Part shown: positions 59-64,000 of the stretch, one piece after another | Position numbering within the stretch: the first letter of the stretch is position 1 | How the letters are laid out: each line of letters begins with the position of its first letter | Made by a program: the position numbers and the translations under genes | IMG/VR virus record: IMGVR_UViG_3300032294_001352 | Coordinates: 23,877-87,876 of that record | Origin: a virus | DNA: 64,000 nucleotides | Strand: one strand, 5' to 3' | The notes under the pieces: model-generated | The model's database searches: none | What the model saw: only the letters and a program-made list of their open reading frames with translations | Told to the model about the DNA's origin: nothing

Positions 59-451
59 ATGGGGAGAAAGTCGACTGTGGGGCCTCGTAATCAACCTGAC
101 AGTAGTGGAGAAAATCCCGTTACAGACGGGCCAGTATCCACCAGTGATACCAACACCACCACCTACGCCACCACCGACACCGTAAAGTACGTGGGGAATG
201 GTCGGTTCTTGCTTGGTGTCCCTGCCGCAGACATGACGGTGGAACAGGCAAATCAGTATGGTGGGGCAGATGTATTGGTCAAGACAAAGTTGTATGTAAT
301 GGAGGAAGCACATGGCACTACCATCATCGGCGGGAACACCAGGAATCAAGTCGCTGCAGAAGATTCAGATTGGTCTGGAAGCAGCGGGAGCGAACGGAAC
401 AGCAGTACCAGCGACGAAGATTCTTCGAGTACCTGGGGGGATGCTGAGTGA
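59..451 (+). CDS. Small hypothetical protein preceding the tail tube gene
   Basis: GGAG RBS 8 nt before the ATG at 59; core YVGNGRFLLGVPAADMT. The last 140 nt overlap the tail tube gene in another frame. Confidence 0.5.
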   Translation: MGRKSTVGPRNQPDSSGENPVTDGPVSTSDTNTTTYATTDTVKYVGNGRFLLGVPAADMTVEQANQYGGADVLVKTKLYVMEEAHGTTIIGGNTRNQVAAEDSDWSGSSGSERNSSTSDEDSSSTWGDAE

Positions 452-1484
452 CGATCGTCAAGTCACCATGGTTGATGAAATGGTCGGTATCATCAACGGT
501 ACGGATCGTTCGTACATTGCTGCTGCCCAAGGATCCATCAGTGTGGATAGCAGTCCACTGACTCCGCAACAGTTTCCTATCTTGCTTGCGGCATCACTTG
601 GATTTGACTATGCCACTACACCAACTGCGTACACGGAGGGTGAGCAGGAGGGAACTGGTACGGCCTATCGCTACAAAGTGACGATGCCTACCACGACCAC
701 GCCAAATGCAAGTATCACTGGCGCATCAAACGTATCCTACACCTTTGAGGCTGGAGATAACTTTGAGGCTGAACAGATGACGTATGGCAAATGCACCAAC
801 GTGTCGGTGAGCGGCAGTAGTGGTGGTCCAATCTCCATGCAAGGATCGTTCATTGGCCAGTACGTGCGCTATCTCGGTGCATTCACTAGCCTATCCACCA
901 TTGATACCGTGGAAGATCTCATCTTTGCACGCTCACGCTTGTATTTGGCTGAACCAACTGGTCCAACGCCAACGTTCACGGCCGTGGATAGCACGTTCCT
1001 CGGCTTTGACGTAGGCATTGATTGTTCATGGGTGCCGAAGTTCACTGGCCAAGGCAACGCATCTGGTACGGTACCGACGTGGGAGTTTGCGTTGTTCACT
1101 AACTACTCCGTGAGCGGATCGTTCACGTTGGAGCATAACCAGTGGACAAGCGGCACGGCCAATGGTTTGAAGACCAAGTGGCGCAATCAGGAAACACTCA
1201 TCATGCGTATTGACTGTTGGGGCAGCAAGACTCCGCTCTTGACCACCACTGGCAGCACGTTCAACAATCCGATTGCTCCGTTTCAGCCCACTCCGTTGCT
1301 GACCAATCCTACCTATGCAGGTGTGCGCTTTGAGTTCCCCATCAAGATTCAACAGATTTCGCCGCTCTCAGACAATGATGGGAATGACATCGTTAGCGTG
1401 TCATGGGTAGCACGGTATAATAGTACGTATGGCAGCACTGGATATATCCTGACCATCAGCGACTTGCCAGACTGCGTGAATTAG
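312..1484 (+). CDS. Major tail tube protein
   Basis: 390 aa; N-terminal KIQIGLE-AAG pattern, beta-rich, T/G/S-rich; GGAGG RBS; sits upstream of the chaperone and tape measure genes. Confidence 0.8.
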   Translation: MALPSSAGTPGIKSLQKIQIGLEAAGANGTAVPATKILRVPGGMLSDDRQVTMVDEMVGIINGTDRSYIAAAQGSISVDSSPLTPQQFPILLAASLGFDYATTPTAYTEGEQEGTGTAYRYKVTMPTTTTPNASITGASNVSYTFEAGDNFEAEQMTYGKCTNVSVSGSSGGPISMQGSFIGQYVRYLGAFTSLSTIDTVEDLIFARSRLYLAEPTGPTPTFTAVDSTFLGFDVGIDCSWVPKFTGQGNASGTVPTWEFALFTNYSVSGSFTLEHNQWTSGTANGLKTKWRNQETLIMRIDCWGSKTPLLTTTGSTFNNPIAPFQPTPLLTNPTYAGVRFEFPIKIQQISPLSDNDGNDIVSVSWVARYNSTYGSTGYILTISDLPDCVN

Positions 1485-1510
1485 TATGAGTACCTGTAAG
1501 GGGGAAACCA

Positions 1511-1777
1511 ATGTTTGTTGAAGACAATACCAACGATGCCGCACCAAAGAAAATCCAAGTAGACTTGAAGCGTCTGCGTCTGCGTGACATGACCATGCTT
1601 GAAAAGTTGCGTGACGGGAACACGGATTTTTCTGTCATGGTGCCAGTGTTTGCGCGCGTGTGCAACCTGACTGAGGATGAGGTGTGGGATTGGGATTTTG
1701 AAACGCTCATGACGGTGCAGCACCACATGAACACTGCGATGGACGACGTGCTAAAAAAAACGAACGGCGGCAGTTAG
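1511..1777 (+). CDS. Tail assembly chaperone (gpG-like)
   Basis: 88 aa between tail tube and tape measure; ends at an A8 slippery run (1753-1760). Confidence 0.8.
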   Translation: MFVEDNTNDAAPKKIQVDLKRLRLRDMTMLEKLRDGNTDFSVMVPVFARVCNLTEDEVWDWDFETLMTVQHHMNTAMDDVLKKTNGGS

Positions 1778-1995
1778 CGTTATACATCCAATACGACAAC
1801 ACCAAACTTCCCAACTGGGTAACGTTCTTGGAGTTGGCTGAGATGTGGCACGTACCACCATGGCAGTTAGAAGAAGCGGATGACCAAGGGCTTCTGATGC
1901 AATGGGCAGTACGTGCCTTTGCGTGGCGAGATGCCAAGAATAAGAGAGAGGATCGGATAGCAAATGGCCGAAGTATCAGTAAGCGTCATTGGTAA
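1753..1995 (+). CDS. -1 frameshift extension of the tail chaperone (gpGT-like)
   Basis: The -1 frame is open from the A8 run to TAA at 1993-1995: KKNERRQLALYIQYDNTKLPNWVTFLELAEMWHVPPWQLEEAD...; no obvious RBS/start of its own. Confidence 0.75.
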   Translation, partial: KKNERRQLALYIQYDNTKLPNWVTFLELAEMWHVPPWQLEEADDQGLLMQWAVRAFAWRDAKNKREDRIANGRSISKRHW

Positions 1996-28072: not shown

Positions 28073-28157
28073 CAGCCGGATGCTCCGTGATCAGGCTAAT
28101 AACCATCTGATTCCAACGCGGAAAATCACCAATTTTCTGTGATTCTCAAATTGGTAC

Positions 28158-28186
28158 TTGACAAACTATACATTTTGTCTTACAAT
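28158..28186 (+). promoter_or_regulatory. Sigma70-type promoter for the ncRNA cluster
   Basis: TTGACA-17 nt-TACAAT followed by GACTGACAT, as at 46591 and 60760. Confidence 0.75.
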
Positions 28187-28240
28187 GACTGACATGAGGG
28201 AATGGCGTGTGGGGAGAGAAAAAACCGTGACTGACACTCA

Positions 28241-28480
28241 CGAGTACCTCACACTTAATGGTGAGAGATGGTAGTGGTTGCCATCCAGATGTGTTGACTC
28301 GCAATCAACATGTTGACACCAGCCGTAGGTGGTGCGACCACCTCAGCAGACCTACAAGCATTATCGGACTCCGTGCGCTGGTAATGTGGAAGGCGGGCAC
28401 CTCGAAGAAAGAAAGCGTCGCACAGGAACTGGTACTCGGTATTACACTGAGTAGGTGGGCAACCTGCCAAATAGCCCACC
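28241..28480 (+). ncRNA. Putative structured non-coding RNA
   Basis: Closing stem GAGTACC (28241)/GGTACTC (28431) encloses several hairpins; followed by a GGTGGGC/GCCCACC hairpin; no convincing CDS. Confidence 0.4.
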
Positions 28481-28485
28481 GTTAT

Positions 28486-28618: not shown

Positions 28619-28620
28619 AT

Positions 28621-28782: not shown

Positions 28783-28818
28783 CTACTACTATTACTCGCT
28801 GACCAGTAAGGAGCGCCC

Positions 28819-35562: not shown

Positions 35563-35620
35563 TCAGTGAATGCATGGGTGGCTACGCTGCATGGTGTGGC
35601 CACCCACAGGAGCAATACAT

Positions 35621-37392: not shown

Positions 37393-37866
37393 ATGAATCT
37401 GATTCTGAGCACTATTCTACTGTATATCACCTGCCAAGGGAACATCTGTCACGTCATTGATGTCACACCAGAGGCTGCTGCGGTTGCGGCATGTGAGTCT
37501 GGTGATACGGTGACGTTAGGATCAGTCAAGTGGAATGCGATTGGCTACAATGGCACATGGTCCACGGATGGTGGTGCATGGCAGTTTAACTCATATTGGA
37601 TTTGGAATCCGAGCAACTTGTGGGCACTGAATCAGGTTGCACCACAGTTCGGTATGACTGGTGCGGAACTGGCAGAGTTGTATCCGAGTGCGGCAGTGGC
37701 ACCAGCACATGTTCAGTACACATTGTTTGAGATAATCTGGAATGACGGCTATGGCTGGCGCAACTGGTCCGCGTCACAGCCGTGCTGGTCGCAGTGGCTG
37801 ACGATCAATGAGCGTGACCAGGCCGTCTGGCGCACGGATGTTTTATTACCAAAAATTGCTCACTAA
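37393..37866 (+). CDS. Secreted Rpf-like lytic transglycosylase
   Basis: Hydrophobic N-terminus; VAACESG...GGAWQF...W...APAHVQ...GWRNW..SQPC; promoter TTGACA at 37335. Confidence 0.7.
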   Translation: MNLILSTILLYITCQGNICHVIDVTPEAAAVAACESGDTVTLGSVKWNAIGYNGTWSTDGGAWQFNSYWIWNPSNLWALNQVAPQFGMTGAELAELYPSAAVAPAHVQYTLFEIIWNDGYGWRNWSASQPCWSQWLTINERDQAVWRTDVLLPKIAH

Positions 37867-37877
37867 GGAGGAACACC

Positions 37878-38564
37878 ATGGATGATGATGCACAAAAGTT
37901 TTTTCGTGAGTTCACACACATCAATGCTGAGATGCAACGAGAGATGACAAAGTCAATGAAGGTGTTCTTTGACGCAATGGGAAAGCCAATCAATGAGGAT
38001 GCCAATCCAGATACGGTGATATGGCAGCAAGTGAAACAAGATATGCCACGCTTGTGGCACAAGATGGTTGGGAACTTCCACGCAACGCATGGGAAGCACG
38101 TTGCACTGGTGCAAGAAAACATGAAATACATGGCCACGGTAATGCCAGAGCAGCATGACGCACTGATAAATGCTGCATATCATCATGACAGATCAAAGTT
38201 AATTGAACCAGAGTTCACTCCATACGTGTGGCGATACTACCGGACAACGTGGCGCGCCCAAGGTGAGCAAGACACGCAGGTAACTACATTCATGGCCGAT
38301 CCTACGCTCGATCAGGCTATTCGAGATGCTGTGGTGCATCATGTGACGCACAATCGCCATCATCCTGAATGGCACTTAGATCCAGATGATATGACCACGT
38401 TAGACATCGTAGAGATGTGCTGTGACTGGTATGCAATGAGTCAGGAGCATGGCACAAGCATTGATGCGTGGGTGGAAAACGTCATCCCTCGCCGATACGC
38501 ATTTGGCCAAAAGAAAGCCACGGTGCTGCTAGTGATCAACCTGCTAAAACATCAGCATTCCTAG
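37878..38564 (+). CDS. HD-domain phosphohydrolase (DUF5662-like)
   Basis: H...HHDRSK...HHVTHNRHHPEW...DIVEMCCDW. Confidence 0.8.
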   Translation: MDDDAQKFFREFTHINAEMQREMTKSMKVFFDAMGKPINEDANPDTVIWQQVKQDMPRLWHKMVGNFHATHGKHVALVQENMKYMATVMPEQHDALINAAYHHDRSKLIEPEFTPYVWRYYRTTWRAQGEQDTQVTTFMADPTLDQAIRDAVVHHVTHNRHHPEWHLDPDDMTTLDIVEMCCDWYAMSQEHGTSIDAWVENVIPRRYAFGQKKATVLLVINLLKHQHS

Positions 38565-38591
38565 GGAATTGATTTTGATGCAATATTTTAT

Positions 38592-38647
38592 TTGACAAAG
38601 TATATAGTTTTGTGCTATGATCATCTCAGGTTGATTTGAGTAAGGAG
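38592..38647 (+). promoter_or_regulatory. Repeated phage promoter with leader
   Basis: TTGACA-AAGTATATAGTTT-...TATGAT...AGGTTGATT...TAAGGAG. Confidence 0.8.
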
Positions 38648-38655
38648 AGTAGCCT

Positions 38656-38892
38656 ATGTCACAGCAGTCACAGCCTCAGTTGCGTATCCGCGTTTCTATC
38701 CGTGGTTTTGATACTTTTACTGTCACATCCTACCGGATTGTGGATGGGCAGGAAGTGTTGGCCGGTGAGATTACCTACAACGCTCACGACTTTGACGGCT
38801 TCATTGACTTGGATAGCCACGACGTGGATTTCTGCGTGGCCGGCGACGGTTCGCCGATTGCCATCAGCCAACGTGACGATCACCAAGACTAA
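38656..38892 (+). CDS. Small acidic hypothetical protein
   Basis: First gene after the promoter; Asp-rich. Confidence 0.6.
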   Translation: MSQQSQPQLRIRVSIRGFDTFTVTSYRIVDGQEVLAGEITYNAHDFDGFIDLDSHDVDFCVAGDGSPIAISQRDDHQD

Positions 38893-38908
38893 AGAAAGGA
38901 ACCTGCAT

Positions 38909-39175
38909 ATGATGAACGTAGAAAAAGTGACTGTAGAGATTGTGGCCAAGGATAATGAGTGGCATGTGACCATCACCTGCCCAACCACCGGCTGGCAGGT
39001 ATCAGAAGTGAAGAAGTTAGAAGATCACGCACGCTGGTTTGCATGTCATACGCTGATGACCAAGTGGGCTTCTGGTTGTGTGACGTTCACTAAGCCGATG
39101 GAATGCGTCAACATGAACTTGATAACCGCGATTCTGGAAGAATATCACCGTGCAAGTAAGGAGTTTCAGTTATGA
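38909..39175 (+). CDS. Hypothetical protein
   Basis: AAAGGA RBS. Confidence 0.55.
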   Translation: MMNVEKVTVEIVAKDNEWHVTITCPTTGWQVSEVKKLEDHARWFACHTLMTKWASGCVTFTKPMECVNMNLITAILEEYHRASKEFQL

Positions 39176-39387
39176 GATTACGCACAATTAACGCTGAGCA
39201 AATGGCTGCCATCATCACGGAGATCCATGAGTGCATGACTAACGTGATGGATTCCTCACCAATGGCCGTGGTGGCGATCGTAGAGAGCAGCATTCACGAA
39301 GATGCACATTGGGATGATGATGCACCAGTGACCACAGCATCCATCCTGCAGGCCATAGACGCATGGAAAGCCACGCAACGCGCATAG
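39172..39387 (+). CDS. Hypothetical protein
   Basis: ATGA overlap with the upstream stop. Confidence 0.55.
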   Translation: MRLRTINAEQMAAIITEIHECMTNVMDSSPMAVVAIVESSIHEDAHWDDDAPVTTASILQAIDAWKATQRA

Positions 39388-39412
39388 AATCCCAGTAAAG
39401 CCTTTGACGCAT

Positions 39413-39441
39413 AAGGAAGCCAAGCAATCTGGCTTCCTTTA
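39413..39441 (+). terminator. Intrinsic terminator
   Basis: AAGGAAGCCA...TGGCTTCCTT-TT. Confidence 0.65.
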
Positions 39442-39516
39442 CTAATTTCTTTACTAGTGCTTTACTAGCAGATCGGGATGATGCGTTTTTAGTAAAGAAG
39501 ATATGCAATATTCTAT

Positions 39517-39572
39517 TTGACAAATTATATAGTTTCATGGTAGAATACTTCTAGGTTGATTTGAGCAAGGAG
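39517..39572 (+). promoter_or_regulatory. Repeated phage promoter with leader
   Basis: TTGACA-AATTATATAGTTT-...TAGAAT...AGGTTGATT...AAGGAG. Confidence 0.8.
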
Positions 39573-39580
39573 CAACGCAT

Positions 39581-39880
39581 ATGGCCAACACAGCAGAAGT
39601 ACGGATTTTTGAACCAGGCCTCGGATACACCACCATTCCAGCAGCGTGGGTGCCCACGGAGTCACTCCAAGAGTGTCTGACGTGGCTTGACGGTGGTGAC
39701 TGTATGCGTGAGGCCTTCAAAGAGTGGGTGCGTAAGTTTGGTGAGCGTGGCAGTGGTGAGTACCACATCAGCCTGCACGTTGACAATGAGCAAATTGGAC
39801 CAACGGAGATGATTGAGTGGTCATTTGCTGATGATGAAATCCAAGGCTTTGATTGGGATGATCGTCGCGATGATGAATAA
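39581..39880 (+). CDS. Acidic hypothetical protein
   Basis: First gene after the promoter. Confidence 0.65.
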   Translation: MANTAEVRIFEPGLGYTTIPAAWVPTESLQECLTWLDGGDCMREAFKEWVRKFGERGSGEYHISLHVDNEQIGPTEMIEWSFADDEIQGFDWDDRRDDE

Positions 39881-40079
39881 TCCCATGCATCGATACCATC
39901 AGTGGGCAGCAGAGCGGATGAGTGCCATGCCCACTGATGCGTTAAAAACACTGTTGGTCCGTTATCGTTCTATGGCCAAAGACTTCCCATGGACTGACGC
40001 AAAAGAGTACGTAGCGATTGTAGAGCAAGAATTGGTGACGCGCTCACCCAAGAAACGACGGAGTACAAAACATGGATAA
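39870..40079 (+). CDS. Hypothetical protein
   Basis: Overlapping ORF in the operon. Confidence 0.5.
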   Translation: MMNNPMHRYHQWAAERMSAMPTDALKTLLVRYRSMAKDFPWTDAKEYVAIVEQELVTRSPKKRRSTKHG

Positions 40080-40410
40080 GCAACAGCAGATTGACGAAGT
40101 GGTCCAGATGGTTCGTGAGCAACAATCCTTTGCCACGATCTGGGATAAGATTGCGGAGTACAAAATCAAGGGAACGTGCTGGTTGACGGTAGGAACGTGT
40201 AAGGGTGTGGCTGAGAGTGGCTTCCCAGTCATCGCAGACACGTACCACACGCACAACTGGGGAGAGTTGCAGCACTTCTACCGTGGTGCGCCTGAGGGAA
40301 GCATCGTGACGCGACCAGACGGCCGTGTCTACAAAGTCATGGCCACCTATGACGTGGCCGGTGATGCAACTATGCCAGCCAAATCCATGTGGTTTGCAGT
40401 GCTGATTTGA
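40072..40410 (+). CDS. Hypothetical protein
   Basis: GGAG RBS. Confidence 0.6.
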   Translation: MDKQQQIDEVVQMVREQQSFATIWDKIAEYKIKGTCWLTVGTCKGVAESGFPVIADTYHTHNWGELQHFYRGAPEGSIVTRPDGRVYKVMATYDVAGDATMPAKSMWFAVLI

Positions 40411-40473
40411 TTGACATTTACTGCCGCATAGCGTATCATCAAATTGTATATTGTATGTGCAAGGTGGTGCGCT

Positions 40474-44018: not shown

Positions 44019-44060
44019 ATGAATCCACCTGTTGCAGTAATGTGCCGCAGGTGGATTCAT
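44019..44060. terminator. Hairpin between convergent genes
   Basis: ATGAATCCACCTG/CAGGTGGATTCAT 13-bp inverted repeat. Confidence 0.6.
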
Positions 44061-44077: not shown

Positions 44078-45130
44078 CTATGACAACGTGACTGAGTAAC
44101 TGACGCTGCTTGGATTTTCTTTGCGCCATGATGCCTGCAGAAGTACGTGCTGCATAATTGCATTAGCCAGAAAGTTCATGGATTTACTAATTGCCGCAGT
44201 ATCAAGTTCCGGTTGATTCAGATACGGATTTGTTCTGACTGGTGGTTTGCCAAGTACCTTGGTGAGAATGACGGTAGAAGCCATATGCCACTCTTTCGCA
44301 TAGTTTGGCGTGCGGAACATGTTATTGAAAAGCGTTTGCGCGCGTGTCGTGATGGTGAGCATTGTTGCTCTTGTGGTATTACGCTCTCGCATAGCCTCAC
44401 CCTTGGTCAGTTTGTTGAGTGCCGCAACAAACGTCAGATTCATTGCACCAGGATTGTTCTTGAACAAATCACGCATGTCACGGAATGACGCTTCAATCTC
44501 TGGGCGCATGTACCGAACACTCTCAGGAATAAAGATGTCTAAATCATCCATAATGAGATCAAGCATGGCTTCCATCTGTTGCCGCTCTTCCTTTTTCATC
44601 GGAATGGCTTGGGCTTCAATAGAAAGCAATCCAGTTTCACCCATGTTAATTAAATCTGCTGGACTGAACGTGACGACATCTGGATGATTATGCGTGATAT
44701 GTGATGAACGGAGCATGGTGACGGCAGGCATACGGACACGGCTAGCCGTTCCCTGAAACTCACCAAGAATATTCCCAACGTCATCAATCAACACAGCACG
44801 CTCACGCTTGGCCTTGCGATCAATCTTGACAGTTGGCTGAGCATAGACTTGTTGCGCACGACTAATCATCTGTTCACCAATCGGTGAGTTTGAGATGATG
44901 CTGCGTGATTTGGCAATGTCACCAGTTGCCGCACTCCCAACAATTTCCGGTTCTGGCTTCTTCTTGCGTGATGCTGGTTTCTTGGCCGGAGCAGGTTTTG
45001 GTTCTGGCGTGGGCGCAGGCGTTTGGGCAGCCGGTGCTGGTTCACCAGTTTCCCCAATCACGTTGCCAAAGATGTCATAGATCTTTGCGTCAATCGCACC
45101 TGCTCCGGCCTTTTTACGGTTTCGTCCCAT
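44078..45130 (-). CDS. MGRNR-tag protein 5, JAB/MPN-like cargo
   Basis: MGRNRKKAGAGAIDAKIYDIFGN start; ERAVLID...THNHPD...FSPADL (E...HxH...S..D). Confidence 0.8.
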   Translation of the reverse strand: MGRNRKKAGAGAIDAKIYDIFGNVIGETGEPAPAAQTPAPTPEPKPAPAKKPASRKKKPEPEIVGSAATGDIAKSRSIISNSPIGEQMISRAQQVYAQPTVKIDRKAKRERAVLIDDVGNILGEFQGTASRVRMPAVTMLRSSHITHNHPDVVTFSPADLINMGETGLLSIEAQAIPMKKEERQQMEAMLDLIMDDLDIFIPESVRYMRPEIEASFRDMRDLFKNNPGAMNLTFVAALNKLTKGEAMRERNTTRATMLTITTRAQTLFNNMFRTPNYAKEWHMASTVILTKVLGKPPVRTNPYLNQPELDTAAISKSMNFLANAIMQHVLLQASWRKENPSSVSYSVTLS

Positions 45131-45140
45131 GCCGCACTCC

Positions 45141-45956: not shown

Positions 45957-46532
45957 TTATTGCTCCACTTTTGGCAGCACCACTCCGATTTGTGACTGGT
46001 ACTTGCCTTTTTTGTCAGCGTACGACGTGCGGCAGTCACCACCATCCAAGAAGTAGACTTGTGCGATCCCTTCATTGGCGTGAATCCGGATAGCATGGTG
46101 TGACACGTTGCTCAGTTCAATGGTGATGTGGCCCTCCCACTCTGGTTCAAGTGGTGTGCAGTTCACCAGAAGCCCACAGCGTGCGTAGGTTGACTTCCCG
46201 AGCACAATCCCAAGCACGTCACGCGGAATCCGGAAGTACTCTACCGTGCGGCATAACACAAGGCCACCTGGGGGCAGCACGTACTGATCAGCGATAACGT
46301 GCTGAGTGTATTGCTCAATGTTGCGTTCCTTAGGATCGATGATATACGCGCGATCGTCAGACCAGGCTACTGGTGATTCCACGTACTTCCACTCATTGGC
46401 CACACGCATGTCATAACCGTATGACGATACACCGTAGGAGATAACGCCACTGCGTTCCTGCTGCATGACAAACGGTTCAATCATTCCGTTGGCAGCGTGC
46501 GTAATGATCCACCCATCATTCTTGACACCCAT
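45957..46532 (-). CDS. dcd: dCTP deaminase
   Basis: ISYGVSSYGYD, GKSTYARCG, TPLEPEWEG, EGIAQ, YADKKGKYQ. Confidence 0.95.
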   Translation of the reverse strand: MGVKNDGWIITHAANGMIEPFVMQQERSGVISYGVSSYGYDMRVANEWKYVESPVAWSDDRAYIIDPKERNIEQYTQHVIADQYVLPPGGLVLCRTVEYFRIPRDVLGIVLGKSTYARCGLLVNCTPLEPEWEGHITIELSNVSHHAIRIHANEGIAQVYFLDGGDCRTSYADKKGKYQSQIGVVLPKVEQ

Positions 46533-46590
46533 GATTGTTCCCTCTCATATCACGAAAATCCTCATTTGCATTATAAGATAAAATTGGTAC

Positions 46591-46649
46591 TTGACAAAAG
46601 TATATAGTTTGTATTATAATGACTGACATAGAGTTGATTTAGTAAGGAG
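46591..46649 (+). promoter_or_regulatory. Repeated phage promoter with leader
   Basis: TTGACA-AAAGTATATAGTTTGTAT-TATAAT-GACTGACATAGAGTT...TAAGGAG. Confidence 0.85.
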
Positions 46650-46655
46650 CGCCAC

Positions 46656-46772
46656 ATGGACAAGATTCTTCGCAACGCACGCTACGATGATGCCTGTCGC
46701 ACCTACCACACTCGCAAGTTCCGTCGTCGCTACAAGATTGCACTCGCTCGCTACATCAAGGAGGCCAAGTAA
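46656..46772 (+). CDS. 38-aa basic peptide (not in the ORF track)
   Basis: TAAGGAG RBS; MDKILRNARYDDACRTYHTRKFRRRYKIALARYIKEAK; its stop overlaps the next ATG. Confidence 0.65.
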   Translation: MDKILRNARYDDACRTYHTRKFRRRYKIALARYIKEAK

Positions 46773-47098
46773 TGACCAAAGAAATCACTGTGAAGTTGCC
46801 AAAAGGCTGGGAGTTCTGTGACGTGTTGGAAGCCCAGCGTGAGGTGTCAGAGAACGTCACCATGTCTGTTGCGCCACGCTACGTTGGCCGTGGGGTGTTC
46901 GATCTCACCAAGTGGGATGTGCTTGTGACCAAGCATGTGGCTGACATCATGCCCACTGAGGAAAATGACTGGTATGACGGTACGGAAACACTCGCTAAGT
47001 TCACCGTCACCACGGAAGTGGATAGCCCAGCATCATGGCGCAAAGCGTGTGTGATGGCGTTCAAGCAGGGAACCAAGATGATTAAGGAGGCCAAGTAA
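46772..47098 (+). CDS. Hypothetical protein
   Basis: AAGGAGG RBS. Confidence 0.65.
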   Translation: MTKEITVKLPKGWEFCDVLEAQREVSENVTMSVAPRYVGRGVFDLTKWDVLVTKHVADIMPTEENDWYDGTETLAKFTVTTEVDSPASWRKACVMAFKQGTKMIKEAK

Positions 47099-47099
47099 T

Positions 47100-56225: not shown

Positions 56226-56669
56226 TTAAAACAAGTAAAACTTTGCAGGATCTTGGTTGAAGTAGAGCAGCGTTTCCTGTGCCGCACTCTCCCATCCATA
56301 GCAGACCACAGCACGCCAGCCGGATTGCTGAAAGCGCGCCTGCCACCGTGTCTGCTCCTTACTCGCTCGATTGGTTCCCACCTTTAACTCAATGGCCAAT
56401 CCCACGTACCGTGTTGGTGCAACGCACTTGTTGGCACTCAGATACAATGCCGCACTCTTGTCATCCATCGGCACTGCTGATGGCACAGGGATCAAGATGT
56501 CTGGTACACCAGCCTTAACACCCTGTGCTTTGAGTTGTGCAGCCACCGTGATATGGCGATGGCCACCGTTGGGCACATGGAATGCCCACGCTACTTCTGG
56601 TACGCTTCCAGCGATATGTGCGTAGAAGCGAAAGAGATTCGTCTGTGCAACACCTTCTAATTGCCGCAT
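56226..56669 (-). CDS. VRR-NUC domain nuclease
   Basis: FHVPNGG...GVKAGVPD...IELK...Q..W. Confidence 0.85.
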   Translation of the reverse strand: MRQLEGVAQTNLFRFYAHIAGSVPEVAWAFHVPNGGHRHITVAAQLKAQGVKAGVPDILIPVPSAVPMDDKSAALYLSANKCVAPTRYVGLAIELKVGTNRASKEQTRWQARFQQSGWRAVVCYGWESAAQETLLYFNQDPAKFYLF

Positions 56670-59167: not shown

Positions 59168-60334
59168 CTATCGGTTATAAATAGGAATCTGAAGTGAACC
59201 AATATTGGTTGGGATTTGACTGGCCAAATAGTTGGCCTCACGTCGTTCTGGCGTGTCTGGCAATCTTGCATTTAGGTTGCGTTTTCCACGCTCAATTCGC
59301 TGCATGGTCTTTGCACGCACTTGGCGCATCCGTTGTTGCTCAATTTGCAACGCCATAAAGTTTGCCGCAGTTAAAGGCCTATTCATGAGTGCAAAGTTGC
59401 GTTTAATTTGGTCGTCAATTCCGTTAAGCAACCGGAGTGCGCCATTGAAATCTCTCATATCCTGTGGTCCACGTAACTCAGAAACGGTGATGTTTCGCTT
59501 CTGGTTCGCATAGCCATCACGCTGTGCGTACAGTGCAACACGATCCATTGGCTGTGGAAGTACGCCACCAGCAGCCGTGTATGCTTGCCGCATTCGATCA
59601 ACGTCACGGAGATTGCTTGTGATTTGATTCCACTGATCTTGGAGTGTTTTCATGGCCTGCCAATTCTCACGAGTAGGATTGGCAATGTACGTCTGCTGTG
59701 CATCCACTAAGAAGTGTGCCGCAGGTAAAAATGATTGGTTGTAGGCAATACTTGGATATGCATCTACCGTCTGCTTTTTGAATCCGGTGTTTGATTTCCA
59801 CCGTGCCATTGCGTTGTCAGGATCGGGGAAATCAATGGTATACGTAGGATTTTCAAACGGACCACCAGATGCGTTGAGGAAATACTCATTGCCACTTGAA
59901 TCGCGGATAGGAATGATGGTAAGGCCTTTGTTACGCATCAGTGCAGCAGCACGCGAGAGTTCCATCTCAGGTGCTGGATTGGCCAAGGCCTTGGGAATCT
60001 CATCACCCATGAGGCGCACGTACTCATCTGCCGCACGGCCAATGCGTTCCCAATCAAACTCACCATCAGCGTCACGCATCTGATCGGTGCTAATGGTGGT
60101 GCGTACACCGTCAATGTCTACGTCAAATGACGTGGATGAATAGTCATACTCTTCAGCATCACCACGATCTATTCCACGGATGTACGGTATAACCGTCATC
60201 TGACGGCCATCTGGCAATCGTTTACTGATGCCACCTGCTTCAGAAGCAGTTTGATTGAAATCCCATGGGATAGATTGTACTGACTGAGCAACAATCACCT
60301 CACCAGTTCCTGCTTTGCGTCGATTACGGCCCAT
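59168..60334 (-). CDS. MGRNR-tag protein 7
   Basis: MGRNRRKAGTGEV; TAAGGAG RBS. Confidence 0.8.
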   Translation of the reverse strand: MGRNRRKAGTGEVIVAQSVQSIPWDFNQTASEAGGISKRLPDGRQMTVIPYIRGIDRGDAEEYDYSSTSFDVDIDGVRTTISTDQMRDADGEFDWERIGRAADEYVRLMGDEIPKALANPAPEMELSRAAALMRNKGLTIIPIRDSSGNEYFLNASGGPFENPTYTIDFPDPDNAMARWKSNTGFKKQTVDAYPSIAYNQSFLPAAHFLVDAQQTYIANPTRENWQAMKTLQDQWNQITSNLRDVDRMRQAYTAAGGVLPQPMDRVALYAQRDGYANQKRNITVSELRGPQDMRDFNGALRLLNGIDDQIKRNFALMNRPLTAANFMALQIEQQRMRQVRAKTMQRIERGKRNLNARLPDTPERREANYLASQIPTNIGSLQIPIYNR

Positions 60335-60440
60335 ACGCGTATCTCCTTACTTGCTCACTATTTGTATCATACAAGACACAACAAGCGCTCCTGAGAGCGC
60401 CTGTGCGTGCCTATGTGGTTGTGGGTGATTGTGACGTGTG

Positions 60441-60701
60441 CTATCCGAGGATAGAGTCACGCCAACGCTCCACACGGACATCTTCCACCAAGTCCACGTC
60501 ACCACGCGCCACTTCCTCACCAGTGGCAACACTAGTGGCTACCCATGAGAATTGCCAGTGAGCGTAGCCGTTGTAGGTGAACACGGCCAACGTGGCCTGT
60601 GCACCAATGTAACTGGTGTATGATGGCATGATCATGCCAAACTCACGGATGACCACACCGTCAAGACCAATCACTTTTACGAGAATCTTGTTCATGGGCA
60701 A
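60441..60701 (-). CDS. Hypothetical protein
   Basis: TAAGGAG RBS; likely start ATG 60695. Confidence 0.6.
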   Translation of the reverse strand: MPMNKILVKVIGLDGVVIREFGMIMPSYTSYIGAQATLAVFTYNGYAHWQFSWVATSVATGEEVARGDVDLVEDVRVERWRDSILG

Positions 60702-60760
60702 CTCCTTACTGAATTAACTCTATGTCAGTCATTATAATGCAAACTATATACTTTTGTCAA
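60702..60760 (-). promoter_or_regulatory. Repeated phage promoter with leader
   Basis: Near-identical to the 46591 copy (TTGACAAAAGTATATAGTTTGCATTATAATGACTGACATAGAGTT). Confidence 0.85.
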
Positions 60761-61017
60761 GTAGCATTTTGTGTCATTCCAAGCAACACGTCACGCGTGG
60801 ATATGAAAATGGTTTCCATGGTTGCGTTGTTGAACCGCTGCGTGATCCACTGGCCGTCAATGCATCGAACCATCACGATGGCCAACACATTGTCATGGTG
60901 ACGTGCTTCATACGCAAAGGGATTGTCGCCATTGACAATCCCACGCGCAAACGTTGCTCCGTGAAATCCATGCTGTTGCGTGATCGCCAGATTCAGCCGG
61001 AACTCTAACTCAGTCAT
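60757..61017 (-). CDS. Hypothetical protein
   Basis: Coupled TAATG junction. Confidence 0.55.
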   Translation of the reverse strand: MTELEFRLNLAITQQHGFHGATFARGIVNGDNPFAYEARHHDNVLAIVMVRCIDGQWITQRFNNATMETIFISTRDVLLGMTQNAT

Positions 61018-61355
61018 TACTTGGCCTCTTTTTTGGCAGCGTCTTTGGCACGCTGTTGGCAGTGCTTCATAAAGATGATACCGTCAGCAATCACACGCGC
61101 CACGTCATCACTGATGACATCCATGACAATACCGTCAATGTCACCAGTCACCATGTTGATGGTGCCACGCATCGTGCCAGCACTGACACCACGGAAGCCA
61201 CCAACCACCACGGTAGCGTTGTCAACGCCAGCAGGAACAAACGCACGCACGCTCACGCTCACCTTGTTATCCTGCATGGTCATATCCACGCGGATAATCT
61301 GATTGATGATGCGCCCATTGGCGCGGACCACGTCATGTGAGAAAAACATAGGCAA
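61017..61355 (-). CDS. Hypothetical protein
   Basis: AAGGAG RBS after the promoter. Confidence 0.6.
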   Translation of the reverse strand: MPMFFSHDVVRANGRIINQIIRVDMTMQDNKVSVSVRAFVPAGVDNATVVVGGFRGVSAGTMRGTINMVTGDIDGIVMDVISDDVARVIADGIIFMKHCQQRAKDAAKKEAK

Positions 61356-61414
61356 CTCCTTGCTTGTAAAATCAACCTAGGAGCATTCTAGCACGAAACT
61401 ATATACTTTGTCAA
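61356..61414 (-). promoter_or_regulatory. Repeated phage promoter with leader
   Basis: TTGACA-AAGTATATAGTTT...TAGAAT...AGGTTGATT...AAGGAG. Confidence 0.8.
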
Positions 61415-61562
61415 ATTGAATATTGCATTTGATATAACACATAGAACCAGCAGGATTGGTCAGATCCTGCCTAGCGTTGCACTATGGAGCGTTGAAGAGG
61501 AAATTGGGGTATTCATGTACACAGATCTTCTGTGCGATTCCAGTATAGCAAAAAACTGCTAT

Positions 61563-61620
61563 TTGACAAAGCGTCATACATACTATATAATTCTTCCTAG
61601 GTTGATGATTCAGTAAGGAG
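61563..61620 (+). promoter_or_regulatory. Promoter with the AGGTTGAT leader
   Basis: TTGACA-17 nt-TATAAT...TAGGTTGAT...TAAGGAG. Confidence 0.75.
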
Positions 61621-61626
61621 CGACAG

Positions 61627-61839
61627 ATGAGCAACGACAACGCGTGGATTGAGTGGAATGACATGATGGCCAACCAGCCAGCAGAGCAACCGGTGGAAGT
61701 GCCTCAGGATGTGCTTGACGGACACAACATTCCGGTAGAGATCTCTGGTGACGCACCAGTGGCTGATGATGACGCTGCTGACGTGGATTGGGATGACGCT
61801 GCGTTTGATGCATTCTTTCGAGCAAAGGGGGGCAAATAA
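61627..61839 (+). CDS. Small, highly acidic protein
   Basis: 70 aa, D/E-rich with aromatic residues. Confidence 0.65.
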   Translation: MSNDNAWIEWNDMMANQPAEQPVEVPQDVLDGHNIPVEISGDAPVADDDAADVDWDDAAFDAFFRAKGGK

Positions 61840-62232
61840 ATGAACACGAAACCATCACATGACATCTACACAGACGGCCGGTACTGCATGAGTCTGTGGG
61901 AGGCAACACCGGCCCAAATCCGCACCTGCATTTTCGATCTCACTGAGTTCAGTGATGACATTGTGGCCAAAGTGGCTGACACTGACGAAGTGGTAGACGC
62001 GCTCTCCAACTATGGCGATGACTGGGAAGACTGTGAGCAGGATCACAACTACGTTGGTGGGGATAAGTATCCCGATCCTTTGGATTCCATTGGAAGCCTC
62101 CGTGATGATGATGACGGTGAGTTCTTCATGGATGACTTGGCCTTTGACGGAGATGCGTTGGAGTTCGCTGATCAGGCCTACAAGGCAGCGCGTGAAACGC
62201 AGACGTTCAAGACACCGGCTGACTTCCGCTAG
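61840..62232 (+). CDS. Highly acidic protein
   Basis: 130 aa, D/E-rich. Confidence 0.65.
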   Translation: MNTKPSHDIYTDGRYCMSLWEATPAQIRTCIFDLTEFSDDIVAKVADTDEVVDALSNYGDDWEDCEQDHNYVGGDKYPDPLDSIGSLRDDDDGEFFMDDLAFDGDALEFADQAYKAARETQTFKTPADFR

Positions 62233-62242
62233 GATTGATCTC

Positions 62243-62276
62243 AAATCCCCCACCAGATAGTCTGGTGGGGGATTTT
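62243..62276. terminator. Bidirectional terminator
   Basis: AAATCCCCCACCAGA/TCTGGTGGGGGATTT. Confidence 0.75.
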
Positions 62277-62282
62277 GTGTGC

Positions 62283-62465
62283 CTACTTCTTGCGTGGCTG
62301 CTTGGCCATCATATCCTGAATATCCTTAACACTCACATGGTCACGCACAGACTTTTCTGATGACACGTTGCGCATCAGTGGTGGACCATCCAACGTCACG
62401 TACTTCTGCTTAGCCCCACTCTTACCAGTCTTGCTCGCCTTACTTGGCTTCTTGTTGTCCGTCAT
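62283..62465 (-). CDS. Small basic protein
   Basis: AAAGGAG RBS before ATG 62465. Confidence 0.55.
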   Translation of the reverse strand: MTDNKKPSKASKTGKSGAKQKYVTLDGPPLMRNVSSEKSVRDHVSVKDIQDMMAKQPRKK

Positions 62466-62639
62466 GCGATCGCTCCTTTCTAGTGCCGCATTCATTCTAC
62501 CATGGTATATAAAAAACATATATTCCGTTGCAATTATTGCAAAAACGGTATATAGTTTTCCCATATTCAGTTGCACTTTTTGCAAAAACAGTATATAGTT
62601 TGGCAATATTCCGTTGCAAAAAATGCAAAGGCTTTGCGA

Positions 62640-63263
62640 TTATTGCAATTCCGCATTAGGAAGCCGTGAAAATGCACCCATCCAAAGCGTGTCATAATCC
62701 ATCCGAACTTGGTTGGCCATGTGCAGTGAGATGGCTGCCAGTACGCTCTCTCGCTTAGCCTCATGCAGTGTTTTCGCCGTGCCGCTTACCTGATGCTTGG
62801 TATCCATCACGGTAATCCAGTACCACTGGATCTGTGACTGCACGACAAAGCATCGACCAACATCAGGGATGTACATCTCACTCCACTGTGCATCAAGTAT
62901 GCTAGGGAATGTAAGAGATAGAAAGTTGTTGGTACTGATTCCCCACTTCTTTTCTACCAGATTGGCCACATATGCCACACCAACCGTAAGTGCATCTTTC
63001 CCCAGAAAGCGCATCAACGCATGTTCCATCAACTCACGCATTTCCGCTGCTGACTGATTCTCTGATGTGGCCACAATCTTGTCTATCAGATGGTCTTTCC
63101 GATCAACCATTTCCGCAGTAGTGCTAGACACAATCTCGCCTGTCCATATGTCTTGATGCTCAGCATATTGGTAGACGTGCAGCGTGTATCCTGCCACGGT
63201 GGCTATCCAATACTGAGGAAACACTTCCTGCCAGTTGAACCGGTAACTGAATGCTGGTGTCAT
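62640..63263 (-). CDS. Hypothetical protein
   Basis: 207 aa; ATGA overlap. Confidence 0.6.
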   Translation of the reverse strand: MTPAFSYRFNWQEVFPQYWIATVAGYTLHVYQYAEHQDIWTGEIVSSTTAEMVDRKDHLIDKIVATSENQSAAEMRELMEHALMRFLGKDALTVGVAYVANLVEKKWGISTNNFLSLTFPSILDAQWSEMYIPDVGRCFVVQSQIQWYWITVMDTKHQVSGTAKTLHEAKRESVLAAISLHMANQVRMDYDTLWMGAFSRLPNAELQ

Positions 63264-63508
63264 TGATGCTCTCCATATAGCCTACGTGCATACTGGTAGA
63301 TTTCTTGCATGTGCGGAGTGAGATAGTGCCACTTGTAATGTGCAGGATAGGTTATCGTGCCGCCATTCGGGTGTGGTTCCTCAATCATGGCTTCCCACAT
63401 ACCATCAGCCGTATAGATTGGTGAACCACGCTTCCATGACGTACAGAGTGCCTGTACCATGGCCGTGGCCATCTCTTCAATGAATACGCTAGATGATGAT
63501 GTAATCAT
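63260..63508 (-). CDS. Hypothetical protein
   Basis: 82 aa; ATGA overlap. Confidence 0.55.
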   Translation of the reverse strand: MITSSSSVFIEEMATAMVQALCTSWKRGSPIYTADGMWEAMIEEPHPNGGTITYPAHYKWHYLTPHMQEIYQYARRLYGEHQ

Positions 63509-64000
63509 TCATCGGCCTCTTTGAGTGCATCCCATGATACTCCGTAGTGTCGTGAGCAAATGTGGTCAAGCACTGCCGCATACTGACGGATCTCTCGTTG
63601 TGCATCCGGCTTGTTGCGGAGGCGCACAAAATGGTACAAGGCCTGCTCTGTGGCAGTCCACATGAACCGAGTGTACAGACTCATAGGCAGAATCGTGCGT
63701 GCCTGCTCTTTGGCTATCCCTGCCGCAATCATTCGCTGGTACATGGTGGTCAGTGACTCCACAGCACCAATGGCCCAGCCTCGATAGTACTCAGAGTCGT
63801 CACTCACGGTATCCGTTGATCCTTGTTTGCTGCTCTTGGATTGCATGTAGAACGCAGGTGGTATGTAGAACTTGTCGTACTCCACATACCTGCCGCTTAT
63901 CTCGTTCCATCCGGTATCCACAAACGAGTATGGACCACCGACCACATGCTTGTACCACTGGCGCGCAACGAACTCAGGGCACTGCACGATGATACTGATA
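63505..64000 (-). CDS. thyX: Flavin-dependent thymidylate synthase (5' end lies outside the window)
   Basis: PEFVARQW.KH...NEISGRY...AKEQARTILP...LR....AQREI. Confidence 0.9.
   Translation of the reverse strand, partial: ISIIVQCPEFVARQWYKHVVGGPYSFVDTGWNEISGRYVEYDKFYIPPAFYMQSKSSKQGSTDTVSDDSEYYRGWAIGAVESLTTMYQRMIAAGIAKEQARTILPMSLYTRFMWTATEQALYHFVRLRNKPDAQREIRQYAAVLDHICSRHYGVSWDALKEADE

Follow-up and report, generated by a model that had tools for sequence, protein, structure and literature searches.

The closest described counterparts of the pattern analyzed here are the HIPs, which are cyanobacterial words. HIP1 is GCGATCGC (PMC4390886, PMC5861425), while GCsGC is an alternative HIP that is over-represented in Cyanothece PCC 7822 and is tied there to GCsGC methyltransferases (PMC4390886). 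As given in the parts of these papers drawn on here, HIP density is 0.5-2.5 per kb and HIP1 periodicity is 10-90 kb (PMC4390886, PMC5861425). Two DNA modification systems should be considered as well. The DpdA transglycosylase, which depends on DpdB, a ParB-like ATPase, is active at specific G-C sites (PMC10164549). In post-replicative phage cytosine hypermodification, a C5-methyltransferase is followed by a TET-like 5mYOX and then by a glycosyltransferase, and the published enzymes mark GpC-containing contexts (PMC8256090, 10.1101/2023.12.21.572611). The sections of these last two sources used here do not report target-word enrichment or spacing in phage genomes.

We analyzed the IMG/VR record IMGVR_UViG_3300032294_001352, a virus contig of 87,876 bp (the genome), and the 64,000-nt stretch at record positions 23,877-87,876 (the window), for which a preliminary description had pointed out the heptamer TGCSGCA. 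Like the HIPs in the material cited above, the phage word is short, GC-rich, palindromic, at least 15-fold over-represented and selected within genes, and the genome that carries it also encodes a cytosine methyltransferase. Its density is of the same order (2.2-3.3 per kb) and its core, GCSGC, is literally a published HIP, such that the analogy with HIP1 in the preliminary description was apt (PMC4390886, in the part used). Unlike the HIPs as described there, the word occurs in a phage rather than in a chromosome, its 5' T flank is near-obligatory with A and G flanks purged, and its copies form an array with a hard minimum of about 104 bp, a mode of about 200 bp and site-free early-gene islands. 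As the record is a virus contig in which HIP1 shows no enrichment (3 copies, with 1.0 expected), the array falls outside the HIP class insofar as this is defined by cyanobacterial chromosomes.

Chi sites and DNA-uptake sequences are also over-represented short intragenic words that function at the level of DNA, and are oriented or competence-linked words of the host chromosome. The phage array is like them in being made of a short over-represented intragenic word and differs by its exclusion zone and purged near-cognates, neither of which, to our knowledge, is a property of Chi sites or DNA-uptake sequences. An analogy with DNA-uptake sequences that had been drawn earlier found no support.

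In the window, TGCCGCA (90 copies) and TGCGGCA (66) are the two most frequent 7-mers, with the third-ranked 7-mer at 43. Together they make 156 heptamers, against a uniform expectation of 7.8 (64000 x 2 / 16384). This confirms the count of about 155 against about 8 in the preliminary description, the enrichment being stronger than claimed. The whole phage contains 113 and 82 copies, respectively, giving 195 against 10.6 expected (top 7-mer, z = 56.7). The Markov expectation per heptamer in the genome is 5-12 at orders 0-3 and 31-34 at order 4, while an order-5 model matches the observed count, since the anomaly already lies in the hexamers. Four codon shuffles (n = 100 each) were run on genes from our own simple caller, with 16 non-coding or edge sites held fixed throughout. 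Synonymous shuffling yielded a mean of 40.7 (sd 4.9, maximum 55) within genes and of 35.7 (maximum 44) genome-wide, third-position shuffling that preserved all dinucleotides yielded 43.8 (maximum 61), and shuffling of codon order within genes yielded 31.0 (maximum 40). As all of these fall far below the observed 195, codon bias is rejected as an explanation, as had been surmised, and the enrichment persisted through the proposed k-mer comparison with Markov models up to order 4 and with codon-preserving shuffles.

The 195 heptamers comprise 179 coding, 14 intergenic and two on gene edges. Intergenic DNA is likewise enriched, its 14 copies lying in non-coding DNA that totals about 8 kb. Coding copies are found in the frames xxT-GCS-GCA (135), xTG-CSG-CAx (36) and TGC-SGC-Axx (8). 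The earlier claim of several frames and non-coding copies therefore stands, its two non-coding examples, at 44043 and 45130, being among the 16 sites held fixed. CA and TG dinucleotides are enriched 1.45-fold in the genome, and 33 minimal words are nearly absent from it, including AGCT (0 against 343 expected).

In the genome, GCSGC is above expectation overall, with 292 copies where about 171 are expected, even though most flank combinations go unused: the base 5' of the core is T in 284 cases, C in eight, and never A or G. AGCCGC and GGCCGC are both absent, against 43.2 and 44.3 expected, respectively, and the earlier description of GCSGC as uncommon with other flanks was thus an understatement. 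No sequence information was detected beyond the seven bases around the sites. The selected unit is TGCCGC, with two thirds of its copies present as the quasi-palindrome TGCSGCA.

Within genes, selection acts on three adjacent synonymous positions. Of 291 codons preceding Ala-Ala, 183 have T as their last base, the GCG-GCA codon pair is found 91 times against 17.5 expected, and 135 of the 291 Ala-Ala dipeptides are written T-GCS-GCA, whereas GCC-GC[CGT] and GCG-GC[CGT] occur twice and not at all, against 50 and 31 expected. These values bear out the suggestion of the preliminary description that selection acts on the word at the DNA level. The word entered genes via both synonymous and non-synonymous changes, and entered spacers as well. 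In comparison with a relative, the sites at 51989 and 52937 show triple synonymous differences, and the conserved site at 51816 has its C/G centre swapped. On the sense strand, 185 cores are G-centred and 82 are C-centred, such that orientation tracks the gene strand and not replication or end polarity.

The closest pair of GCSGC cores in the genome is 104 bp apart, where about 78-82 closer pairs are expected; gaps have a median of 211 bp. For the hexamer, no gap is below 100 bp, against 78.2 expected (binomial p = 1.9e-40). The gap distribution is unimodal, with a mode of 160-220 bp. In the window, the minimum and median spacings are 108 and 209 bp for cores and 131 and 258 bp for heptamers, in agreement with the 150-500 bp given earlier. 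A site occupies 137 of the 252 usable X-Ala-Ala positions, and 88 of the 115 unoccupied positions have a core less than 150 bp away. Genes for structure, replication and packaging are saturated with sites, with neighbours at least about 105-130 bp apart. No 10.5-bp phasing of the gaps was detected (power 0.28), and the flanks of the sites show, up to 150 bp, no periodic or compositional signal except the 3-base coding period.

Nine islands, totalling 21.5 kb, contain no GCSGC core, against 38-41 expected. As about 40 cores would be expected there, this is a depletion below chance, and selection is therefore needed to account for it. GC content in the islands is the same as in the rest of the genome, AGCT is likewise missing from them and TGGCCA is present at the same density. 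The 20 kb scanned for promoters (window positions 27001-47000) revealed promoter-dense small-gene islands without any site; six of the seven strong sigma70-like sites lie inside islands, which make up 38% of that stretch. Five islands are listed with the other features in Table 1.

Table 1. Sites, void islands and candidate modification or DNA-binding genes, in window positions.
Feature	Position	Strand	Remarks
TGCSGCA array	223..63727		156 heptamers; the window's 228 GCSGC cores include 222 TGCCGC/GCGGCA
First heptamer of the window, TGCCGCA	223..229	+	Example site
Intergenic heptamer	44043..44049		'Hairpin' example; genome 67919
Heptamer at edge of 350-aa gene start	45130..45136		'RBS spacer' example; genome 69006
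Void island	27508..30482		No GCSGC core; sigma70-like promoter (11/12) at 28158; tmRNA-like gene
Void island	30877..32040		No GCSGC core
Void island	37695..40422		Sigma70-like promoters (11/12 each) at 38592, 39517, 40411
Void island	46253..48943		Divergent consensus promoters at 46591 (12/12) and 46597 (11/12)
Void island	60035..62484		No GCSGC core
TET-associated-type DNA glycosyltransferase	33281..34465	+	Pfam TAGT PF20691, E = 2e-38; PHROG 842
DNA polymerase III beta clamp, phage-encoded	34462..35562	+	
Second ParB-N-domain protein	35570..36574	+	ParB N-terminal domain and small C-terminal domain
Mom-family protein	48642..49313	+	Family modifying adenine in DNA
ParB_N-DUF4417 fusion	49316..50581	+	Adjoins terminase; candidate writer or reader
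C5-cytosine DNA methyltransferase, 549 aa	54108..55757	-	PF00145, E = 6e-70; candidate writer
VRR-NUC nuclease-domain protein	56226..56669	-	Upstream of methyltransferase

The catalytic motifs of the methyltransferase are found at aa 3-160 and 495-543. Because the variable region of about 330 aa between them has repeated '..TL..' modules, the enzyme is probably multispecific; two protein searches with it returned generic names only. With a C5-methyltransferase, a TAGT-type glycosyltransferase and a word, TGCCGC, that contains two GpC, the phage resembles the hypermodification pathway as described in the parts of PMC8256090 and 10.1101/2023.12.21.572611 used here. It is unlike that pathway in that the two genes are 20 kb apart and unclustered, and in that no dioxygenase was detected: Tet_JBP (PF12851) is absent from the genome at E up to 10 and PF13640 (2OG-FeII_Oxy_3) has no match. 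In the genome, there is also no thymidylate-synthase-like match to supply the glycosyltransferase. Divergent enzymes of this kind may still be present (PMC13229309, section 12). In the model of the second ParB-N-domain protein (ParB334), no double-stranded beta-helix is visible in the secondary structure, nor any domain of beta-helix size. Among the phage's proteins is a Rad52-type annealing protein; Prim-Pol (PF09250) has no match in the phage, and Pfam scans of 78 phage open reading frames revealed no primase.

Modelling gives the DUF4417 domain a TIM-barrel-like fold, with DpdA and tRNA-guanine transglycosylases (TGTs) as its closest, if weak, structural matches. In a VIA search of 48,161 PDB representative chains, the top four were DpdA and three TGT-family chains (Z 9.7-9.0), with generic TIM barrels close behind at Z 8.8. 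In BFVD, the sole named enzymes matching the domain were two phage 'queuine tRNA-ribosyltransferases' (probability 0.84 and 0.90), while Foldseek against the PDB gave only generic barrels (E >= 0.004). The predicted pairing of a ParB fold with a TIM barrel whose model lies nearest DpdA/TGT recalls the Dpd system as portrayed in the cited part of PMC10164549, the ParB N domain standing where the ParB-like NTPase partner, DpdB, would be and being fused to DUF4417 in a single protein. Unlike Dpd, the structural match is weak and a near tie with generic barrels, no TGT was found by a profile search or by Pfam in the genome, and preQ0 synthesis genes are absent from the genome (no QueC or GTP cyclohydrolase I (FolE) match), although the host might supply preQ0.

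The motif had been suggested as one to seek in related phages. The T rule was obeyed by three related contigs, two of which are largely the same DNA, and minimum spacing was held in four. T-flanked cores number 26 of 33 in L125 (minimum spacing 129), 13 of 20 in L141 (largely the same DNA as L125; 149), 20 of 24 in L132 (in the form TGCCGCY; 114) and nine of nine in L004, a 4.4-kb stretch mostly contained in L125. The T rule is missing in L003, where the methyltransferase is 64% identical yet only nine of 27 cores are T-flanked; the middle part of that enzyme is unalignable with that of the phage. L125 keeps the T rule, yet its 14.3 kb revealed no homologue of the C5 enzyme, not even at the site following the portal gene, and the ParB-DUF4417 fusion is conserved in relatives having the same motif rule. 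Over the same 4.7 kb, the window has 15 sites and a relative seven, with three in common, which points to recent gains. Among 67 records of at least 10 kb (this genome, L125 and 65 loci from ParB-DUF4417 homology), a spaced array of any word was detected in this genome alone, a test with power only for 20-kb pieces that contain at least 15 copies. The phage is found in freshwater metagenomes, with five holders in three studies beyond the likely source study, one equal-sized pair among the five perhaps being the same data set.

Several explanations were weighed against these data. That the array is a by-product of extreme codon usage and restriction-site avoidance, or an assembly or sequencing artefact, might be suggested by the nearly absent words and the excess of CA and TG, but is largely refuted and has the slightest of probabilities: the four shuffles, the 14 intergenic sites and the GCSGC total stand against the former, while contigs from other samples obey the same rule and runs of the three further studies contain parts of the sequence. 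The phage could instead mirror the oligonucleotide usage of a GCSGC-rich host, for example a bacterium with a GCsGC-type HIP, as GCsGC-rich cyanobacteria exist (PMC4390886, in the part cited) and the phage is present in freshwater. A genome-wide bias, however, would not spare nine core-free islands of equal GC, AGCT avoidance and TGGCCA density, nor does it explain the 104-bp minimum or the lack of HIP1 enrichment, and we regard it as very unlikely indeed. A Chi-like signal, by which a dense two-way array would tame the exonuclease of a host nuclease or recombination machine (RecBCD, AddAB) on linear DNA, we hold to be very improbable. The invariant strand GCGGCA is a short GC-rich word, some AddAB Chi sites contain GCGG and the annealing protein is encoded; HIPs have also been compared to Chi as GC-rich (PMC4390886, same part). 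Chi logic, nonetheless, does not predict minimum spacing, bare islands or a purge of near-cognates, and the orientation of sites follows the gene strand.

In Elhai's HIP model, a neutral mutational ratchet, a methyltransferase on nascent DNA shields cognate sites from mismatch repair, and sites accrue until each base is within range of one, the word itself being functionless. Both this model and the argument from saturation have been published, with GCsGC named (PMC4390886, as far as drawn on here), and the phage has a C5-methyltransferase and signs of recent gains. A ratchet, however, cannot lower counts below chance, as in the islands, the A- and G-flanked cores and the gaps below 100 bp, and offers no reason for the 5' T. 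Methylation-linked mutational drive alone, as raised in the preliminary description, is thus a misfit, and we consider the ratchet distinctly improbable. More serious, if still unlikely, is that TGCCGC forms a docking lattice for a DNA-binding or wrapping protein, with one complex per site. As each complex would occupy about 100-130 bp, neighbouring sites could not overlap; complexes would coat or compact the late part of the genome until it is saturated, and early islands would stay free for the host polymerase. The 104-bp minimum and single mode are what is expected from steric exclusion, usable positions are saturated, strong-promoter islands are bare and weaker decoy cores are purged; candidates for the protein are the two ParB-fold proteins encoded by the phage and the basic low-complexity proteins of the virion. 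Against docking, there is no 10.5-bp phasing at the power given, no flank signal save the coding period and nothing informative outside 7 bp, no protein with such a footprint was identified, and in the 65 other ParB-DUF4417-homology loci no word forms a spaced array.

Why phages hypermodify their DNA after replication and at limited sites is left open in the part of 10.1101/2023.12.21.572611 used here. With its repeat of about 200 bp, no pairs closer than about 100 bp and bare early-gene islands, the array therefore appears to be a lattice under selection, made up of target sites for DNA marking or DNA binding, and the interpretation in the preliminary description is partly supported. We tentatively favor the view that copies of TGCCGC, like cyanobacterial HIPs, are targets of a sequence-specific DNA modification system carried by the phage, a reading that is plausible while somewhat short of probable. 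The T-flanked core would be what the writer can mark, and candidates for the writer, singly or together, are the C5-methyltransferase with its several modules, perhaps with the glycosyltransferase acting after it, and the ParB-DUF4417 fusion in a role like that of DpdB and DpdA. Unmarked GCSGC would be a liability, for example as a restriction target, and variants that cannot be marked would therefore be purged. We know of no modification enzyme that predicts a 100-bp exclusion zone; the spacing may reflect costs and benefits. If the benefit of a mark is confined to the stretch of about 200 bp that it serves and each additional site costs, free gaps would all be filled and no site would be kept near another, while islands transcribed early by the host polymerase would stay mark-free.

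The heptamer TGCSGCA is strongly enriched in this genome. TGCCGCA (90 copies) and TGCGGCA (66) are the two commonest 7-mers in the window, with the runner-up at 43, and as the two words are mutually reverse-complementary they amount to 156 sites where 7.8 are expected. The whole genome contains 195 heptamer sites (one TGCCGC site is counted twice in genome totals, due to an overlap of the contig ends), while Markov models expect about 10 copies per word for orders 0-3 and about 32 for order 4. Four types of shuffle were calculated, 100 each, with gene calls from our own caller (122 genes, 91% coding): synonymous within genes, synonymous genome-wide, third positions with all dinucleotides preserved, and codon order. 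The shuffled genomes contained on average 31-44 heptamers and never more than 61. Moreover, 16 heptamers lie outside genes or on gene edges, of which 14 are fully intergenic, in about 8 kb. The enrichment is thus real and is not a codon effect. The preliminary description, which had reported the over-representation, doubted codon bias alone as its cause and noticed copies in non-coding DNA, was correct on all three points.

When both strands are pooled, the genome contains 292 GCSGC cores, of which 284 have a T directly 5' of GCCGC and eight a C, while A and G are never found there (the T rule), in agreement with the earlier impression that GCSGC is uncommon in other flanks. The 3' base is more permissive: 201 cores are followed by A, 45 by C, 41 by T and five by G. 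No information was found at positions beyond these seven bases, so that selection acts on TGCCGC, with a preferred 3' A that renders the site symmetric. The 33 minimal words nearly missing from the genome include AGCCGC and GGCCGC. The same preferences are seen in coding sequence, where a T-ending codon precedes 183 of 291 Ala-Ala dipeptides (T-ending codons make up only 26% of all codons), with 135 of the 183 reading T-GCS-GCA. GCG-GCA was observed 91 times (17.5 expected), GCC followed by GCC, GCG or GCT twice (50 expected), and GCG followed by any of these three codons not at all (31 expected). On the sense strand, the G-centred form (185) exceeds the C-centred form (82).

The sites also keep their distance from one another. 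Successive heptamers are never closer than 104 bp, the next smallest distances being 127 and 130 bp, and the 97 non-heptamer cores follow the same rule. For all 292 cores the minimum gap is 104 bp, and no gap is shorter than 100 bp, where about 78-82 such gaps would be expected; gap lengths have a median of 211 bp and a unimodal distribution, with a mode of 160-220 bp. For the hexamer TGCCGC, the binomial probability of finding no short gaps is 1.9e-40, and none of 2000 random placements gave a minimum gap above 10 bp. The control words TGGCCA, TGACGTG, CACCA and GATGATG show no exclusion. We looked for 10.5-bp helical phasing of the gaps and found none, and neither a periodic nor a compositional signal was found in the site flanks.

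Of the 252 X-Ala-Ala positions at which the protein sequence permits a site, 137 carry one. A core lies less than 150 bp away from 88 of the 115 unused positions; among the 27 distant ones, 16 fall inside long core-free stretches, with the nearest core over 480 bp away. Nine such islands, each of at least 900 bp and together 21.5 kb, contain no GCSGC where 38-41 are expected, while the genome outside them has on average one core per 227 bp. Islands and the rest of the genome are equal in GC content, in TGGCCA density and in the total absence of AGCT. Between window positions 27001 and 47000, six of the seven sigma70-like sites that match at 10 or more of 12 positions fall in islands, which make up 38% of this stretch.

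Other words are also far from expectation. AGCT does not occur in the whole genome (343 expected), CCSGG, GAGCC, GTCTC, GGGAC and GACCC are absent or almost so, and many 6-bp palindromes (CTCGAG, GACGTC, GCATGC, GGGCCC, GTTAAC, CCGCGG, ATTAAT and AAATTT) are missing or nearly so. These widespread missing words represent extensive restriction-site avoidance; AGCT and GTCTC do occur in three related loci (L004, L005 and L125). TGGCCA is enriched (154 copies, 21.7 expected), with T and A flanking 308 of 992 GGCC readings on both strands, but it has no exclusion zone, is found in islands too and is positioned independently of the heptamer array. TGACGTG/CACGTCA is enriched as well (96 against 10).

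The phage contig is a single piece of 87,876 bp with a GC content of 50.3%, and the window covers its bases 23877-87876. As it encodes a tape-measure protein, large terminase, portal, prohead protease and endolysin, it belongs to a tailed phage. A megablast search of deposited phages with 10 kb gave no matches, and the best deposited relatives of the terminase are less than 30% identical. Scanning genome contigs with the portal and methyltransferase revealed no relative, while scanning metagenome contigs with the portal revealed one locus, L125. Parts of the phage are present in five runs of three studies beyond the likely source study, all labelled as freshwater metagenomes (two of the five are equal in size and may be one data set filed twice), and no RNA run is listed among those containing phage sequence. 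Comparison of contigs from four runs with window positions 1964-21963 gave 812 variant rows. Genome positions 1-123 and 87754-87876 are identical; this 123-bp 'direct terminal repeat' is not necessarily physical and may have come from the assembler, as an overlap in a circular or permuted genome. A tmRNA-like element sits within a site-free island, and ARAGORN found neither tRNA nor tmRNA in the window.

Looking for the same motif in related phages, as had been suggested, revealed the T rule in L004, L005, L125 and L141. It should be considered that, as L004 and L005 lie largely within L125 and L141 overlaps most of it, these are close to one independent relative. The portals of L004, L005 and L125 are 75-91% identical in protein and about 75% in DNA. 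T-flanked cores number 26 of 33 in L125 and 9 of 9 in L004 (minimum spacing 129 bp in both), 13 of 19 in L005, and 13 of 20 in L141 (minimum spacing 149 bp). Apart from those within one N6/N4 methylase gene, which suggests a recent acquisition whose cores are still unpurged, the two remaining unflanked cores of L125 directly adjoin T-flanked sites. In L132, a distant phage locus with a ParB-DUF4417 protein just 33% identical, the rule holds for 20 of 24 cores and the minimum spacing is 114 bp. In this phage (L132 and L130) the rule takes an asymmetric form, with TGCCGCY in 19 of 20 T-flanked cores and a 3' A in one, and the relevance of TGCCGC may thus extend past this lineage.

Site positions turn over between relatives. 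Where L125 and L141 can be aligned to the window (4.7 kb), 15 sites lie in the window and seven in the relatives, with three in common; these three of seven compare with 17.6% retention for other 6-mers, although such counts are too small for a comparison. At 51989 and 52937, the window reads T-GCS-GCA where the relative has GCA-GCG, with three synonymous differences each, while at 51816 the site is common to both and only its centre base differs. Viral contigs were also scanned directly for the motif, as three spaced heptamers, which gave at least 119 stretches. Among the matches listed, none contained a homologue of any of the six phage proteins tested, and the motif-rich ones were rejected as protein repeats (L028), as one-strand Asp-Ala-Ala-rich genes (L059, L072) or as chance matches due to GC richness. 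Two other candidate analogues were also rejected: the CACAG words of contig L003 are tandem repeats, and TTTGCAAA, enriched in L126, forms a local 20-bp iteron-like array (nine palindromes at 6088-6341, mostly 20 bp apart). The ParB-DUF4417 protein of L126 is 53% identical, and GCSGC is nearly missing there (two cores in 12.6 kb).

Features of the phage genome and of the related locus L125 (L001 is another part of the same phage genome)
Feature	Location	Strand	Remarks
C5-methyltransferase, 549 aa	window 54108-55757	-	catalytic motifs at residues 3-160 and 495-543
ParB-DUF4417 fusion	window 49316-50581	+	adjoins terminase
N6/N4 DNA methylase gene	L125 1020-2354	-	carries five of seven unflanked GCCGC cores
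Histone-deacetylase-family protein	L001 9768-10679 (genome coordinates)		Pfam E = 4e-28
Ferritin-like/Dps protein	window 41887-42324	-	E = 1e-20
dCTP-deaminase-like protein	window 45957-46532	-	E = 9e-29
tmRNA-like element, 133 nt	window 28486-28618	+	Rfam RF00023, 68 bits (gathering threshold 47)

Several genes are candidates for acting on these sites. Between its catalytic motifs, the C5-methyltransferase has a variable region of some 330 aa in which TL-containing modules recur, the arrangement of the multispecific Bacillus-phage enzymes, and a 633-aa homologue has about 90 aa inserted in this region. The catalytic N-terminal third of the family is nearly invariant (at least 80% identity in many metagenome proteins of 300-630 aa), while the middle regions differ widely in both length and content, as though modules for target recognition were exchanged. 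Further candidates are a TAGT-type DNA glycosyltransferase, a Mom-family protein, a beta clamp, a second ParB-fold protein and a VRR-NUC nuclease. Tet_JBP, thymidylate-synthase-like, 2OG-FeII_Oxy_3 and Prim-Pol domains had no match in the phage genome, DUF5662 was rejected as a dioxygenase, being HD-hydrolase-like in the Atlas, and no additional enzymatic domain was visible in the model of ParB334, the second ParB-N-domain protein.

The ParB-DUF4417 fusion is the sole candidate also found in L004, L005 and L125 (65-68% identical), and at the cut end of L141 it is 76% identical over the first 87 residues. On one 26,390-bp Logan contig an 80%-identical ParB-DUF4417 (P0361) occurs together with a 61%-identical methyltransferase (P0002), and P0363-P0391 are on contigs of 44-92 kb. 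An AlphaFold model based on 30 homologues, with pLDDT of about 65-93 across most of DUF4417 and poor values elsewhere, predicts a TIM-barrel-like fold. The best of 48,161 PDB representatives matching the model were DpdA, which inserts preQ0 into DNA, and three TGT-family chains (Z 9.7-9.0), with generic TIM barrels from Z 8.8, and the only named enzymes matching the domain in BFVD were two phage 'queuine tRNA-ribosyltransferases'. Foldseek against the PDB and a profile search gave no TGT match. DpdA requires the ParB-like ATPase DpdB, according to the available part of PMC10164549, and this makes a ParB domain fused to a TGT-like barrel an attractive lead. The model suggests that the protein may be a fused DpdB/DpdA-like base-exchange enzyme, which is still only a lead. 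The DUF4417 family, large in phages, is given as unknown in 10.1101/2025.10.10.680097, and none of the DUF4417 literature matches listed has a title on deazaguanine. In 67 records of at least 10 kb (this genome, L125 and 65 loci recruited by ParB-DUF4417 homology), a spaced array of any 5-7-mer was found in this genome only, and the link to ParB-DUF4417 therefore does not generalise.

To our knowledge, hyper-abundant palindromes such as HIP1, the highly iterated palindrome of cyanobacteria, have been known for some thirty years with no agreed function. HIP1 itself is not enriched in the phage genome. In the available part of Elhai's paper (PMC4390886), GCsGC is the most over-represented palindromic 5-mer of any cyanobacterial genome, in Cyanothece PCC 7822, where two predicted GCsGC methyltransferases accompany it. 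The phage array resembles this in its word class and in having a methyltransferase in the same genome, but differs in being viral, in its obligatory T, its 100-bp exclusion distance and 200-bp mode, and in its depletion below chance in wrong flanks and whole domains. HIP1 is shown to be under selection and periodic at 10-90 kb in the accessible part of Xu et al. (PMC5861425). Among the papers listed by our literature search for the word, there were primer-type hits only and neither TGCSGCA nor GCSGC, but GCsGC does occur in the available part of PMC4390886; in the literature searched on the word and on spacing, the spacing rule, saturation and empty early-gene islands are not described for such words.

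Selection on a DNA-level site, with HIP as the right analogue, is thus the part of the preliminary interpretation that stands. Over every rival we favour, tentatively, TGCCGC as a selected lattice of modification targets. The purpose of site-limited marks in phage post-replicative hypermodification is a question openly posed in the available part of 10.1101/2023.12.21.572611. A lattice for protein docking is possible but less likely. Elhai's ratchet links a methyltransferase to mismatch repair and, in the available part of PMC4390886, saturates at about one site per kb; a purely neutral ratchet cannot, however, yield below-chance depletion of wrong flanks and whole domains, and we consider it improbable here. 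We regard a Chi-like signal as quite unlikely and a host signature as very unlikely, while a by-product or artefact is hardly credible.

Rather speculatively, the saturated hard-core TGCCGC lattice, with a unit per roughly 130-230 bp, might be a built-in ruler by which a repeating nucleoprotein or modification unit is placed along the late genome, with the early-gene islands left bare. It could be written by a DNA base-exchange enzyme of a so far unrecognised ParB-TIM-barrel (DUF4417) type, in which counterparts of DpdB and DpdA are fused. The phage provides a small and sharp test case: a single word of 6-7 bp follows an all-or-none rule for its flank, the exclusion distance can be measured, 88 kb contain both saturated and empty domains, and the candidate enzymes are few. 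If DUF4417 is a DNA transglycosylase fused to a ParB-type NTPase, a large phage family of unknown function (10.1101/2025.10.10.680097) would gain one and, if the ruler reading is true, the genome of a bacteriophage would have a chromatin-like organisation encoded in its sequence.
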